A DNA stretch of 64,000 nucleotides. Origin: a virus (lineage: Duplodnaviria > Heunggongvirae > Uroviricota > Caudoviricetes). Where the stretch lies: IMG/VR virus record IMGVR_UViG_3300035696_001272; one strand, 5' to 3'. The position numbers and the translations under genes are program-made. Positions 19,903-22,817 of the stretch are shown in pieces. Within the stretch, counting starts at the first letter, position 1. Each line of letters starts with the position of its first letter. The notes below the pieces were generated by a model, which was given only the letters and a program-made list of their open reading frames with translations, searched no databases and was not told where the DNA came from.

Positions 19903-21030
19903 ATGCCAAATCAACAGACTACAATGAGTACTTCGGATTTCAATCTTCAGAAATTGAATACGAAGGAGCTAGCAGACCATGTGGACGCCACCATTCAAAT
20001 AGGCGGTAACATTGCAATATTCGGTCGCCGTGGTACGGGTAAGACAGAAATCTCCAAAGAAGAGATTAGGAGACTAGGATTTAAAGAGGTTTATATTAAC
20101 CTCTCCGTTTTGGAAAGAGTGGACATGGGTGGTTATCCAAACATCATGGCTGCTGCCGCTCAAAAAGAATTCGTTGACTTCATTCTCCCTCAATTCTATC
20201 AACCAATGATTCAAGGTGCAAAGGGCGTCGTGGCCTTGCTAGACGAGGTTGATAAAGCCGATCCAAGTTTGTGGGCTCCATTGCTTGAGTTTACTCAGTT
20301 TAGATCGATCAACCACAAGCCGCTGCCACATTTGCAAGCCATCATCATGACGGGTAACCTAATCTCTGAAGGTGGTTCCCGTCCTAGCTTACCATTGCTA
20401 GACAGAACCGAAAAGTTCTTGGTTGAAGCTGATACGGCCTCTTGGTTGGATTGGGCTGGTAAGTCTGGTCGCATCCACCCATCTATCACTGCTTACATTC
20501 ATGATCATCCAAATGATCTATTTGGTGCGGTTGATCCAGAAGAAAGATATGCCGATCCATCTCCTCGTGGTTGGGACCGAGCTTCTCAAATTCTATTCAG
20601 AGGTGAAGAGAATGGCTGGAGCACATACCTTCTCAATAAGAAAGTATCCGGCTGCGTAGGCAAAGATGCCGGAATCAAGTACTCAAACTACTACGAGCAT
20701 TATATGGAACTGTTGCCAATGGTAGAAGATATCTATAATGGCAAGGACGTATCAGGCAAGTACGGTACACTAGAGCCAGGCAAGAGACTGGTAGCCTGTA
20801 TGATTACTTGTGCACGTCTTGCTGCACAATTGGACAAAGTACAGAACCTCAATGAACTGCCTCCATCCGTTAAACATGTGGGCAAGTTCTTGCACAAGGT
20901 CTCTCACGAAAATGTCTTGGTGGCAGTAAGAAGCCAGGTCCAAATCGAGCGCCTTGTTAAGTTCAACCTTGATGAGCATCCTGATTGGGCTCAAGTCCTC
21001 AGCAGAATTAATAAAGAAGTAGATCAATAA
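19903..21030 (+). CDS. MoxR-like AAA+ ATPase
   Basis: Walker A FGRRGTGKTE; Walker B VALLDEVDKA; sensor MTGN; 375 aa. Confidence 0.65.
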   Translation: MPNQQTTMSTSDFNLQKLNTKELADHVDATIQIGGNIAIFGRRGTGKTEISKEEIRRLGFKEVYINLSVLERVDMGGYPNIMAAAAQKEFVDFILPQFYQPMIQGAKGVVALLDEVDKADPSLWAPLLEFTQFRSINHKPLPHLQAIIMTGNLISEGGSRPSLPLLDRTEKFLVEADTASWLDWAGKSGRIHPSITAYIHDHPNDLFGAVDPEERYADPSPRGWDRASQILFRGEENGWSTYLLNKKVSGCVGKDAGIKYSNYYEHYMELLPMVEDIYNGKDVSGKYGTLEPGKRLVACMITCARLAAQLDKVQNLNELPPSVKHVGKFLHKVSHENVLVAVRSQVQIERLVKFNLDEHPDWAQVLSRINKEVDQ

Positions 21031-21068
21031 TACCTATCTCTTAAGATATATGATCTATAGGAGTTTCC

Positions 21069-22817
21069 ATGAAATTTACTAGAGTAATAGGTAAAATTGA
21101 TCCAAAATTGGTTCAACAAGCTGAAGACAAACTTTCCACAGTTTTCTTGGAACTTGGAACAAGATATGACAACGAACATGTAGGAACTGGTATGGGCGGC
21201 GATCCGCTCATCTTTAGCTTAATGTATCCGGTAGAACATGTTTGCACGATGAACATACCTACTGCCGCTACTGACGGTAAAAGATATTACTGGAACCCTA
21301 AGTTCGTTCTTAAGCACTCCAAGAAGGGACTAAGAATCGTTTGTGGACATGAAGCTTGGCACGCCATCTACATGCATCCTCAAAGAAGAGGATCTAGAAT
21401 TCCAAAGCTCTGGAACATTGCTGTTGACTACATTGTTAACGGTACGGTTATGGAAGACTTCAAGACTCGTAAGATGGATGCATCTGTTGAGTTCACTAAA
21501 AACCTTGGACGCTTCATGCCACTAAGTACCTTCTGTGAATTCATCAAGAATCCTTATGCTAAGATTCCTGGCTTCGAAGATATCAAGTTTGGCATGGATG
21601 ATCCAGACAAGCCTTCGTGTGAATTGCCTGCCCCTAACGAAGATCGTGAGCTAACTGCTCAAGAGCGTAAGGAGTTGGAGAGACGCGAGAAGGGCGCCAA
21701 GTTCTACTATGCTGATCCAGATATCGAAGAGGATATGAAGAGACCAGAGAAGATTTACGATCTTCTGTATAGCCTTCTCCCTAAGTGCCCAAAGTGTGGT
21801 CGTGTAGGTGTTTACCCTAAGAAGCAAAAGCAACAGGGCCAACAACCTCAGAAAAATGGCAAGAAGGATCAGCAGGGTCAGGGTGACCAAGGCAATCAAG
21901 AACAGCAAGGTCAAGGTCAAGGTCAAGGTCAAGGTCAAGGTCAAGGTCAAAACGATCAACATAATCATGGTGGTGATCAGCCATGTGATTGTAACTGCCC
22001 TGGGCAAGGCCAAGGTCAGGGACAAGGACAGGGTCAAGGTCAAGGAGATCCAAATGGCCAAGGACAAAGCTGTAATGGCGATGGACCATGTGATGAATGC
22101 GGTGATGGTACCGACATCTTTGGACTTGGTGGCACTGTAGATGATCATATGGACTCTGAGGAGTCTGAAGAGAAACTAGCTAAGAGAATTTCCGACGCTA
22201 TGGAAGCTGCCAAGAAGATGGCCGGTCACGTTCCAGCAGCTTTGGAAGATGAACTTGGTAAGTTAACTGCTCCTAAAGTGACCTGGCAGGATATCATCCG
22301 TACCAGATTGCTCAAGGCACGTGCTGGCAATGGGCGCAACGATTGGACTCGTTTCCGTACTCGTCCAATGTTCACCGGACTTTTGGTGCCCAAGAGAAAG
22401 AGCTTCTACGCTCACTTTGGTTGCTTGCTAGATACATCTGGTTCTATGAGCAAAGATGATATGGCATTTGGTTTGTCACAACTCTGCGCTCTAGACGAGC
22501 GCTCTGAGGGCACTATTGTTCCAGCAGATGCGACTATCTATTGGGAGAATGCAACTAAGATCAAGAAGGCAGTTGCTGACGAAATTACCAAGGTTAAGGT
22601 AGTTGGACGTGGTGGAACTAAGTACGCTGAGTTCTTTACAGATTATGAGCAGCATATTGGAAAATGTGACTTCCTCATCGTAGTTACAGATGGCTTCCTG
22701 TTGGACAGTGATGTGGCAGAGATGAAGCATCCAGGTGTTGATGTTATCTGGCTAATTACCAGTGGTAGCGCTTTCAACCCACCTTTTGGCAGAGCATTTG
22801 ATTTGCGCTCTAGCTAA
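21069..22817 (+). CDS. VWA-domain protein with N-terminal HExxH putative metallopeptidase domain (DUF2201-like) and an internal (GQ)n repeat
   Basis: HEAWHAIYMH; C-terminal LLDTSGSMS (MIDAS DxSGS); partner of the upstream MoxR ATPase. Confidence 0.6.
   Translation: MKFTRVIGKIDPKLVQQAEDKLSTVFLELGTRYDNEHVGTGMGGDPLIFSLMYPVEHVCTMNIPTAATDGKRYYWNPKFVLKHSKKGLRIVCGHEAWHAIYMHPQRRGSRIPKLWNIAVDYIVNGTVMEDFKTRKMDASVEFTKNLGRFMPLSTFCEFIKNPYAKIPGFEDIKFGMDDPDKPSCELPAPNEDRELTAQERKELERREKGAKFYYADPDIEEDMKRPEKIYDLLYSLLPKCPKCGRVGVYPKKQKQQGQQPQKNGKKDQQGQGDQGNQEQQGQGQGQGQGQGQGQNDQHNHGGDQPCDCNCPGQGQGQGQGQGQGQGDPNGQGQSCNGDGPCDECGDGTDIFGLGGTVDDHMDSEESEEKLAKRISDAMEAAKKMAGHVPAALEDELGKLTAPKVTWQDIIRTRLLKARAGNGRNDWTRFRTRPMFTGLLVPKRKSFYAHFGCLLDTSGSMSKDDMAFGLSQLCALDERSEGTIVPADATIYWENATKIKKAVADEITKVKVVGRGGTKYAEFFTDYEQHIGKCDFLIVVTDGFLLDSDVAEMKHPGVDVIWLITSGSAFNPPFGRAFDLRSS
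21909..22045 (+). repeat. hexanucleotide tandem repeat (GGTCAA)7 plus a degenerate GGNCAR block encoding a Gly-Gln run
   Basis: (ggtcaa)x7 at 21909-21950; second degenerate block 22001-22045; the opposite-strand ORFs here are repeat artefacts. Confidence 0.8.

Follow-up and report, generated by a model that had tools for sequence, protein, structure and literature searches.

Gene pairs coding for a MoxR-type AAA+ ATPase and a VWA-domain protein have been recognised in several groups of phages. In phage N4, gp24 (listed as "Unknown") and gp25 (as "vWFA domain") belong to the 14 genes that are core to N4-like phages, and are expressed as middle transcripts (PMC4193335). Comparative genomics by Iyer et al. 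in 2021 defined as "group 2.2" a jumbo-phage MoxR AAA+/vWA pair with an N-terminal metallopeptidase, and virion assembly together with peptidolytic processing was proposed as its role (PMC7824862). In the GenBank record of phage AR9, g029 is annotated as "zincin-like protease fused to vWA domain" and an "early promoter" is annotated directly 5' of g028. Here, we analyse a pair of this kind in a stretch of 64,000 nucleotides (nt) of phage DNA (IMG/VR record IMGVR_UViG_3300035696_001272; the whole stretch is called the window below), consisting of a gene for an ATPase, ATPase 1, and a gene for a protein of 582 amino acids (aa) with a zincin-like module, a linker and a VWA domain. The pair is the huge-phage orthologue of N4 gp24/gp25, of AR9 g028/g029 and of the pair of Iyer et al.; already recognised in N4-like and jumbo phages, it is not new, and what we add to the prior descriptions is modest, i.e., a conserved promoter of early/middle type, a 102-aa neighbour, a linker with knuckles and a microsatellite, and a second unit made of ATPase 2 and thioredoxin. 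In the reading that we favour, to which as a whole we give a probability of roughly 0.55, positions 19843-22817 are a bicistronic operon in which a sigma70-type promoter is followed by ATPase 1 and then by the zincin-linker-VWA protein, and the two products, by analogy with better known systems, may act as an ATP-gated capture-and-process machine whose client would be an early or host protein rather than a late structural one.

[quoted passage not shown] The N4-like VWA proteins are compact (~400 aa), with neither of the two insertions and no CxxC knuckles or Gly-Gln loop, and N4-like phages have a single ATPase copy and neither the 102-aa upstream gene nor the linkage to thioredoxin. The jumbo-phage pair (AR9 g028/g029, GAP32_210/211) has exactly the architecture of the window pair, with both domains confirmed by Pfam; the window phage, however, belongs to another clade, its ATPase is duplicated and its linker is expanded.

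Several other systems share parts of this layout. NorD runs from an N-terminal domain through a disordered linker to a C-terminal VWA domain. This VWA domain docks onto the hexamer of NorQ and uses its MIDAS to bind acidic residues in the target, and the linker is remodelled as NorQ hydrolyses ATP (PMC9976466, PMC13036017). The 582-aa protein has the same order of N-terminal domain, linker and C-terminal VWA. NorQ/NorD, however, insert non-haem iron into nitric oxide reductase, and this target enzyme is encoded alongside, unlike at the window pair; the domain at the N terminus of NorD is not an HExxH zincin, and no VWA "finger" could be verified in the minimal VWA of the window protein (~135-160 residues). 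With the NorQD, CoxDE, CobST and BchID chaperones the cognate metalloenzyme or chelatase subunit is encoded with the pair, whereas a scan of the window found no gene for nitric oxide reductase, carbon monoxide dehydrogenase, cobaltochelatase or Mg-chelatase. Acidianus two-tailed virus encodes a MoxR-VWA chaperone pair, p618 (MoxR) and p892 (VWA), which is a cited precedent for an assembly role; it has no peptidase domain and its virus is an archaeal one that develops tails outside the cell, and we liken it to the window pair by description only. CLCA1 and the CLCA proteins combine an HExxH metallohydrolase with a VWA domain, which is an analogy of layout only, as they are secreted eukaryotic proteins without an AAA+ partner and with a much larger, metzincin-like catalytic domain; the authors of the CLCA1 work suggested that ligand binding to the VWA domain regulates the protease, the active site being occluded by an autocleavage loop. 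Rea1/Midasin is a giant eukaryotic polypeptide in which six AAA modules are concatenated and which also contains the MIDAS domain; it is without a peptidase and serves ribosome biogenesis. Finally, the ternary MoxR-vWA systems of Kaur et al. (2020) have the MoxR and vWA core and, occasionally, a peptidase fused to the vWA component. In these systems the vWA domain is N-terminal and the effectors are C-terminal (PMC7159879, PMC8195603), the third component is VMAP, iSTAND, FtsH or a beta-propeller protein, and multicellular bacteria are enriched among the hosts (PMC7159879). They differ from the window pair in domain order, third component, taxonomic setting and accessory rather than core status.

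A conserved ATPase-VWA operon

The operon and the genes directly upstream are laid out as follows.

19843-19870 (+), sigma70-type promoter of the ATPase 1-VWA operon, TTGACA-16-TATATT, 11 of 12 consensus positions, 33 nt 5' of the ATPase 1 start
19903-21030 (+), ATPase 1, 375 aa, containing FGRRGTGKTE; orthologue of N4 gp24 and AR9 g028
21069-22817 (+), zincin-linker-VWA protein, 582 aa, starting 38 nt after ATPase 1
19123-19431 (+), 102-aa open reading frame (ORF), candidate third component of the module, clade-specific, without known domain
19431-19793 (+), variable 120-aa ORF that contains two CxxC pairs and separates the 102-aa gene from the promoter

The two ORFs of the pair, separated by 38 nt, are those on which the original prediction, made from the letters of the window, had built its case. 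The first ATG of ATPase 1 is preceded by a AAGGAAGGAA ribosome-binding site, which supports it as the start. The VWA gene lies directly downstream of ATPase 1 in 32 of 33 loci of the clade, and the operon is conserved at 70-85% identity. An element of the form TTGAC[AGTC]-16/17-TAxxxT stands ~45-75 nt 5' of the ATG in ~30 of 34 related loci; matches of at least 10 of 12 positions occur in 26 of the 34 (76%), as compared with 6.7% of 2000 random windows of 160 nt. Promoter-like sites in the region overall are not above chance (32, with 30.4 expected from shuffled sequence), and we therefore tested conservation and took only the conserved site as evidence. A perfect 12/12 sigma70 consensus (TTGACA-16-TATAAT) at 22834-22861 (+), between the VWA stop and the next gene (22891), is without conservation in related phages and was not counted.

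Searches of phage records with tblastn gave 270 matches for the VWA protein and 164 for ATPase 1. The adjacent ATPase-VWA pair was confirmed in Acinetobacter phage nACB1 (N4-like), Bacillus phages Goe21 and AR9 (PBS1-like), cyanophage S-TIM54 (T4-like) and Cronobacter phage GAP32 (Rak2-like). The pair is core to all N4-like phages and present also in PBS1/AR9-like, Rak2-like, cyanophage and huge-phage genomes; few phage gene pairs of no known function are shared as widely. The conserved operon with its own promoter in a clade of phages with contigs of ~430-490 kb supports a basic role in infection.

The original prediction had advised a search of related phages for a third, effector component. 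A comparison of related loci brought out the 102-aa ORF, which lies upstream of ATPase 1 in 30 of 32 pair-carrying loci, the other two being truncated upstream, while the genes farther upstream vary among loci (tyrosyl-tRNA synthetase, initiation factor 3 and others). Its 96 homologues, none of them annotated, all fall within the huge-phage clade; its family hidden Markov model (HMM) matched nothing among the ORFs of six other phage lineages, and the ORF itself has no Pfam, PHROG, NCBIfam or PADLOC match. It diverges faster than ATPase 1 (38-73% against 61-83% identity) and is placed upstream of the conserved promoter. We regard the 102-aa protein as a candidate module member on the strength of synteny. 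A recognised third component was not seen, as the ORFs neighbouring the pair have no VMAP, iSTAND, FtsH or beta-propeller domain by Pfam, PADLOC and NCBIfam. The 120-aa ORF occurs in 7 of 33 related loci at ~30% identity, has no Pfam family match and is probably not core to the module.

Domains of the 582-aa protein

The protein is built of four parts.

21069-21779 (+), zincin-like module, aa 1-237; HExxH at 21348-21362, H103 at 21375-21377, D120 at 21426-21428
21786-22100 (+), flexible insert, aa 240-344; CxxC at 21786-21797, HxH...CxC(xC) at 21960-21998, second CxxC at 22089-22100
22140-22337 (+), helical pre-VWA module, aa 358-423, followed by a conserved basic R-x-x-RR motif before the VWA domain
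22338-22817 (+), minimal VWA domain with complete MIDAS, aa 424-582; DxSxS at 22431-22445, T517 at 22617-22619, D541 at 22689-22691

Pfam finds DUF2201_N ("putative metallopeptidase domain"; E 8.6e-23, 81.7 bits, cut-off 23.2) followed by DUF2201 ("VWA-like domain"; E 2.3e-9, 37.8 bits, cut-off 26.4), both over the gathering score, and the protein matches phrog_1314 (E 1.9e-57). An exhaustive search with it reached 10,603 representative clusters (50% identity) at E <=0.001. The HExxH motif is HEAWH at residues 94-98 and the MIDAS motif DTSGSMS at residues 455-461, so that the motifs of both terminal modules named in the original prediction, a putative HExxH metallopeptidase and a VWA/MIDAS domain, are borne out. 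In an alignment of 107 diverse full-length homologues, H94, E95, H98, H103 and D120 are at least 90% conserved, and these residues are present in all six phage lineages aligned. The MIDAS residues, whose absence on alignment would have spoken against a VWA domain, are clearly in place: D455, S457, S459, T517 and D541 are at least 90% conserved in the same alignment, and D455, S457 and S459 are invariant. The compact homologues from N4-like, Rak2-like, PBS1-like and cyanophage genomes have the motifs HExxHxxxxH...NxAxDxxxN and DxSxS...GGT...(T/S)D as well. E95, the catalytic Glu of HExxH, is kept in 104 of 107 homologues, which argues for catalysis over metal binding alone.

The AlphaFold2 model of the protein is confident, with a mean pLDDT (predicted local distance difference test score) of 85 and a pTM (predicted template modelling score) of 0.73; only residues 271-336, with pLDDT below 50, are disordered. 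Pre-VWA helices are modelled at 367-385, 390-400 and 406-421 (pLDDT 80-94). Conservation among close representatives reaches at least 90% for D358, H360, A377, G386, P389, P402 and R432 in and next to this module, D358 and H360 not being conserved in N4-like or other cultured-phage homologues. A metallopeptidase-like fold of the N-terminal region, as originally predicted, came through weakly: the fold search with the N-terminal 445 residues gave no strong structural neighbour. The structural neighbours of the 582-aa protein, none of them strong, are the HExxH domain of the ChlH alpha-ketoglutarate (alpha-KG) oxygenase, SjiH-Ni, peptidyl-Lys metalloendopeptidase and a predicted zincin-like metalloprotease (3e11), and further BlaR1, botulinum neurotoxin light chain, aminopeptidase N, Wss1 and projannalysin; the best of zincin type are Fe- or Ni-binding HExxH enzymes.

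PHROG 1314 and many RefSeq phage records (e.g., NC_049430.1, NC_031039.1 and NC_019401.1) carry the label "HNH endonuclease" for this family, for which we find no support in sequence or model. The GenBank counterparts of those RefSeq records read "metallopeptidase domain protein", "VWA-like domain protein" and "zincin-like protease fused to vWA domain". The endonuclease name is apparently wrong and is still being propagated.

The linker

The insert between the zincin-like and pre-VWA modules is edged by two CxxC knuckles, C240/C243 and C341/C344, and contains two repeat tracts found by Tandem Repeats Finder.

21906-21950 (+), microsatellite (CAAGGT)x7.5 encoding (QG)n, 100% matches
22005-22046 (+), second, imperfect tract (CAAGGA/T)x7

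The Gly-Gln repeat linker noticed earlier in the translation is thus a tandem repeat at the DNA level. Of the close homologues 110 of 121 have both knuckles, and of the diverse ones 45 of 103, at a spacing of 7-426 residues; from their presence in both sets and their spacing, the ancestral linker looks like a compact, zinc-ribbon-like knuckle pair, the loop of which would have been inflated in the clade by low-complexity sequence rich in K, G and Q. Within the loop, 93 of 110 close homologues keep an inner D-Q-H-x-H-G-x-x-Q-x-C-x-C motif that is absent from all the diverse ones. A short linker of low complexity occupies this position in the compact homologues too, so that a flexible joint between the zincin and helical pre-VWA modules is a feature of the family.

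The (CAAGGT)n tract is length-polymorphic. Between the window and contig L062, the sole difference in this gene is a deletion of two repeat units (12 nt) in L062, giving 578 instead of 582 aa, and there are no mismatches in the rest of the gene or in 6,146 nt upstream. Logan contig L006, a short-read assembly, breaks within the repeat.

The ATPase family

The window encodes a second ATPase of the family, ATPase 2, whose surroundings are described further below. ATPase 1 and ATPase 2 both match phrog_1297 "ATPase" (E 4e-41 and 6e-42), and with 31% identity over 327 residues (E 2e-53) they are, judged by their sequences, true paralogs; E-values such as these and those of the 582-aa protein lie far outside chance. 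We aligned 14 diverse family members from five phage lineages, both window paralogs included. In ATPase 1 numbering, Walker A G41/G44/G46/K47, Walker B D114-E115, sensor 1 N152, the LLDR Arg finger R168 and the SPRxW sensor 2 residues P221/R222/W224 are invariant in 14 of 14; because all catalytic motifs are invariant, both paralogs are predicted to be catalytically active.

From profiles and motifs, both are called MoxR-class ATPases of the AAA_5/midasin-like branch. Against the PDB, the family profile has Midasin as top match (E 1.7e-28, summed over its AAA modules) and also reaches a bacterial MoxR structure, 2r44 (E 7.6e-6); single-sequence searches of the PDB gave noise only, and the family profile was required. 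ATPase 2 is above the Pfam cut-offs for AAA (28 bits) and AAA_5 (22.7 bits, cut-off 22), and orthologues in other phages score 24-30 bits for AAA_5, with AAA_3 under its cut-off. The motif YINLSV.ER.D..GYP aligns with "INLSEQTDL.DLFG" of midasin, a hint of the helix-2 region. ATPase 2 also has a weak match to phrog_249 "porphyrin biosynthesis" (E 1.3e-5 against 6e-42 for phrog_1297). Neither the two ATPases nor the VWA protein, the 102-aa ORF and a 316-aa ORF near ATPase 2 had a meaningful match in PADLOC or NCBIfam.

Proposed mechanism and timing

With NorQ/NorD and Midasin as models, ATPase 1 would form a hexameric ring on which the C-terminal VWA domain of the 582-aa protein docks. A divalent cation bound at the MIDAS may then capture an acidic residue of the client, and ATP hydrolysis could be transmitted via the VWA domain, the pre-VWA helices and the flexible Zn-knuckle/Gly-Gln segment, by which the client would be remodelled and presented to the HExxH zincin site, or that site would be unmasked. 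In this way either the client or the adaptor itself would undergo site-specific processing that is gated by ATP. The domain identities, the conserved catalytic and MIDAS residues, the pairing of the genes, the conservation of the promoter and the synteny are seen in the sequences; the formation of a complex, proteolysis, the timing in this phage, the kind of client and the role of ATPase 2 are deduced.

As to timing, the promoter found here, the early promoter of AR9 and the middle class of N4, in three independent lineages, point to early or middle expression. It follows that a host protein, or an early or injected protein of the phage, is a likelier client than a late structural protein, and the search for the client turns from late virion assembly to host takeover or early/injected phage proteins. 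Since the window phage is uncultured, the function of the pair is better attacked in N4 or AR9.

A number of points weigh against this reading. Early timing in this phage is inferred from the promoter motif only, and an assembly role would still be compatible with it. ClpB/Hsp104 D2 scores E ~1e-10 against the ATPase family profile, and ATPase 1 itself, at 21.0 bits, is just under the Pfam AAA_5 cut-off of 22. No client, cleavage site or ATPase-VWA contact was identified, and no functional study of DUF2201 was apparent from the titles and abstracts of the literature searched. The published proposal is a different one, namely virion assembly with proteolytic processing (PMC7824862), and in GAP32 and S-TIM54 the pair adjoins virion structural genes.

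Alternative explanations

These last points lead to the first alternative, a late virion-assembly chaperone, in which the pair would aid head or tail assembly and the zincin would cleave structural proteins. It has been published for the same architecture (PMC7824862), and the archaeal-virus p618/p892 pair is a MoxR/VWA precedent. The GAP32 pair comes after three "virion structural protein" genes, that of S-TIM54 has Hsp20 immediately before its MoxR-like ATPase and a virion structural protein on its other side, and an Hsp20 gene is present in the window as well (39553-40092). The AR9 early promoter, the N4 middle transcripts beside replication genes and the conserved sigma70-type promoter here, however, sit uneasily with a purely late role, although such timing does not by itself settle the matter. 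The pair is moreover found in phages whose virions differ greatly (podo-, myo- and huge phages), and any structural client common to them would have to be very general; no structural genes were identified near the pair in the 64-kb window. On balance we consider an assembly role unlikely.

An improbable alternative is a chaperone for the insertion of a metal or cofactor, of the NorQD/CoxDE/CobST type and tied to the A-type Fe-S carriers and thioredoxin of the window; the original prediction had listed metal insertion linked to the Fe-S genes among its possibilities. The NorD-like layout, up to eight extra Cys/His ligands in the linker, two IscA/ErpA-like genes and thioredoxin within the same conserved block, and the Fe- or Ni-binding enzymes at the top of the zincin-type structural neighbours would fit it. 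The link to the Fe-S genes comes down to synteny within one closely related clade, though: the IscA/thioredoxin linkage is absent at the N4-like, PBS1-like, Rak2-like and cyanophage pairs, and the inner HxH...CxC motif is clade-specific too. The window has no gene for a target metalloenzyme, and the conserved catalytic Glu of HExxH suggests hydrolysis.

The HExxH module might also be no peptidase at all, but an oxygenase-like domain of the Fe/alpha-ketoglutarate type, or a silent metal-binding or regulatory domain. Non-hydrolytic HExxH enzymes exist, and those of the alpha-KG type hydroxylate Gln runs and can cleave the peptide backbone (PMC12636437). The 582-aa protein has a Gln-rich loop in cis, and an oxygenase might act on this loop or on the client. 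That loop, however, is clade-specific whereas the HExxH module is universal, and no NCBIfam family matched the 582-aa protein (the presence of an alpha-KG HExxH model in the library is unconfirmed). We hold this to be very unlikely.

A conflict system of the Kaur type, acting in superinfection exclusion or against host defence with the 102-aa protein as sensor or third component, is the least credible explanation, for, although the MoxR-vWA core stands next to a conserved, faster-evolving small upstream gene and a vWA-fused peptidase is occasionally seen in such systems (PMC7159879), the original assignment to the kind found in NTP-dependent conflict systems fails on the reversed domain order (the effectors there are C-terminal to the vWA domain), on the lack of a VMAP, iSTAND, FtsH or beta-propeller component, on PADLOC matches of the pair that are generic P-loop ones only (15-21 bits), with no bpMoxR or VMAP Pfam match on the window proteins, and on the core status of the pair in lytic N4-like phages, which fits a housekeeping infection function and not an accessory module.

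ATPase 2, thioredoxin and the Fe-S carriers

Downstream of the operon the following features are found.

25072-25395 and 27809-28156 (+), A-type Fe-S carriers (ErpA/IscA-like), TIGR00049, E 4e-36 and 6e-33
29389-30495 (+), ATPase 2, 368 aa, catalytic motifs intact, without an adjacent VWA gene
30546-30878 (+), thioredoxin with intact WCGPC, Pfam Thioredoxin E 7e-26
30907-30930 (+), terminator-like hairpin closing the ATPase 2-thioredoxin unit, 10-bp stem with 6 G-C pairs, then a T-run

ATPase 2 was originally placed 9 kb downstream of the first ATPase and described as an orphan MoxR paralog directly before thioredoxin. Its position, its paralogy and the want of a VWA neighbour hold good; the distance is 8.4 kb from the end of ATPase 1 to the start of ATPase 2 (9.5 kb start-to-start), and "orphan" is an overstatement, as the gene is conserved in the clade and appears to be co-transcribed with thioredoxin. 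Orthologues of ATPase 2 (48-85% identity) are found on at least 15 of ~21 pair-carrying contigs of at least 60 kb. Thioredoxin follows within 200 nt in 19 of the 26 loci with enough downstream sequence; at four loci, from three distinct lineages, the two genes are spaced by -2 to +1 nt, some of them overlapping, and this is suggestive of translational coupling. The hairpin has a folding energy of -16.9 kcal/mol, and the GGGCCGGCGTTTGCTGGCC hairpin is kept in contigs L007-L011 and L013. No conserved promoter was found 5' of ATPase 2 in close relatives. An IscA-like gene lies upstream of ATPase 2 in 18 of 27 loci; the two A-type carrier genes of the window sit between ATPase 1 and ATPase 2 and are syntenic across the clade.

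Within the 64-kb window of a ~477-kb genome, ATPase 2 has no VWA partner: the DUF2201-family HMM, run against all 613 six-frame ORFs, found 21069-22817 only, and Pfam found no VWA domain of any kind on 30 further large ORFs. Two VWA homologues with 50-56% identity, P0241 and P0244, were considered as partners and rejected; each has its own adjacent ATPase in another lineage, and they are therefore orthologues rather than paralogous partners. Directly 5' of ATPase 2 lies the 316-aa ORF (28398-29348, +), whose position is kept in most relatives although it is missing in some. Weighed as a possible adaptor for ATPase 2, it has no family match (Pfam, PADLOC, NCBIfam), and it evolves fast (22-39% identity, against 60-85% for the flanking genes).

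No second ATPase of phrog_1297 type was seen in the other phage lineages examined, the second AAA gene of nACB1 (2.4 bits) being a non-member, and the small neighbours of the ATPase family genes in other lineages showed no thioredoxin or other informative domain. In Pseudomonas phage phi30-3 (L019, 3968-5083), an ATPase of the same family represents the PA5oct-like jumbo phages. The 498-aa protein downstream of it is not a DUF2201/VWA protein and has only weak nuclease-like matches, from which it seems that other lineages, too, may have ATPases of this type with no VWA gene next to them.

We infer that ATPase 2 is an ancient, catalytically intact paralog which either makes use of the one VWA adaptor together with ATPase 1, or acts with thioredoxin and no VWA protein. 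Two more definite forms of this idea, drawn from synteny and intact motifs, are doubtful: ATPase 2 and thioredoxin could be an AAA+/thioredoxin remodelling pair of a kind not described before, in which a disulfide reductase replaces the VWA co-chaperone that is usual for a MoxR-like motor, or ATPases 1 and 2 could form a mixed ring with one zincin-VWA adaptor between them. We know of no case of two MoxR paralogs sharing an adaptor in a mixed ring. If true, the ATPase 2-thioredoxin pair perhaps unfolds and reduces a client, or services the neighbouring Fe-S carriers.

Source phage and other genes of the window

The source of the window is a huge uncultured phage. A megablast search of the locus found no near DNA match among 50,697 phage records; the phage is without a cultured close relative. 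The window agrees base for base with an ENA metagenome contig over 20.3 kb, and the 476,653-bp contig L062 carries a sequence that is, the repeat deletion aside, identical to it. Relatives with 57-85% protein identity are IMG/VR viral contigs and metagenome contigs of up to ~490 kb, the contigs of the clade being ~430-490 kb long. One ATPase 1 homologue with 83% identity, P0136, is deposited at NCBI under a metagenome-assembled genome of "Candidatus Saccharimonadales bacterium"; the record is most likely a huge-phage contig binned into a bacterial genome.

Upstream of the operon, eleven tRNA genes (4 Leu, 1 His, 3 Glu and 3 Arg) are clustered at 9955-16283, and a full-length tyrosyl-tRNA synthetase is encoded at 17951-19144 (TIGR00234, E 4e-108). 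In related phages a second class-I aminoacyl-tRNA synthetase, initiation factor 3 and ribosomal protein L7/L12 adjoin the module. A 505-aa malate synthase (8430-9947, +; MS_TIM-barrel and MS_C) is a phage-encoded enzyme of the glyoxylate cycle. At 10073-11473 (+) a 466-aa protein has the architecture of a eukaryote-like poly(ADP-ribose) polymerase (PARP), with WGR (weak), PARP_reg and PARP catalytic domains, the Pfam matches being those precomputed on the identical contig L056. Also after the malate synthase come a GNAT acetyltransferase (11478-11939) and a cytidylyltransferase-like protein (11936-12511).

Downstream, a dense set of RNA-repair genes (+) occupies 25664-26812 and 33270-42892. 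It includes an RlaP nucleotidyltransferase, two PNKP-like kinase/phosphatases (33270-34217 and 34804-35799) and three RNA ligases, two of PF09414 type (36843-37604 and 42227-42892) and one of T4 Rnl1 type (38293-39540). A KapD/RNase_T 3'-5' exonuclease is encoded at 27131-27790. Further genes of proteostasis type stand downstream of ATPase 2, namely the Hsp20 mentioned above (+, E 2.5e-16), a 198-aa protein whose C-terminal part carries a matrixin-like zinc motif (41304-41900, +; Peptidase_M10, E 3e-6) and an SPFH/Band 7 protein (31380-32624, +).

The sign of the GC skew switches at ~45 kb of the window. A glycan-biosynthesis cluster on the minus strand (44818-61869) includes a GDP-mannose 4,6-dehydratase (E 1e-120), several NAD-dependent epimerases/dehydratases, two DegT-type aminotransferases, methyltransferases, a hexapeptide acyltransferase and glycosyltransferases of families GT2, GT6 and GT11, among them an 802-aa methyltransferase-GT2-GT6 fusion at 58686-61094.

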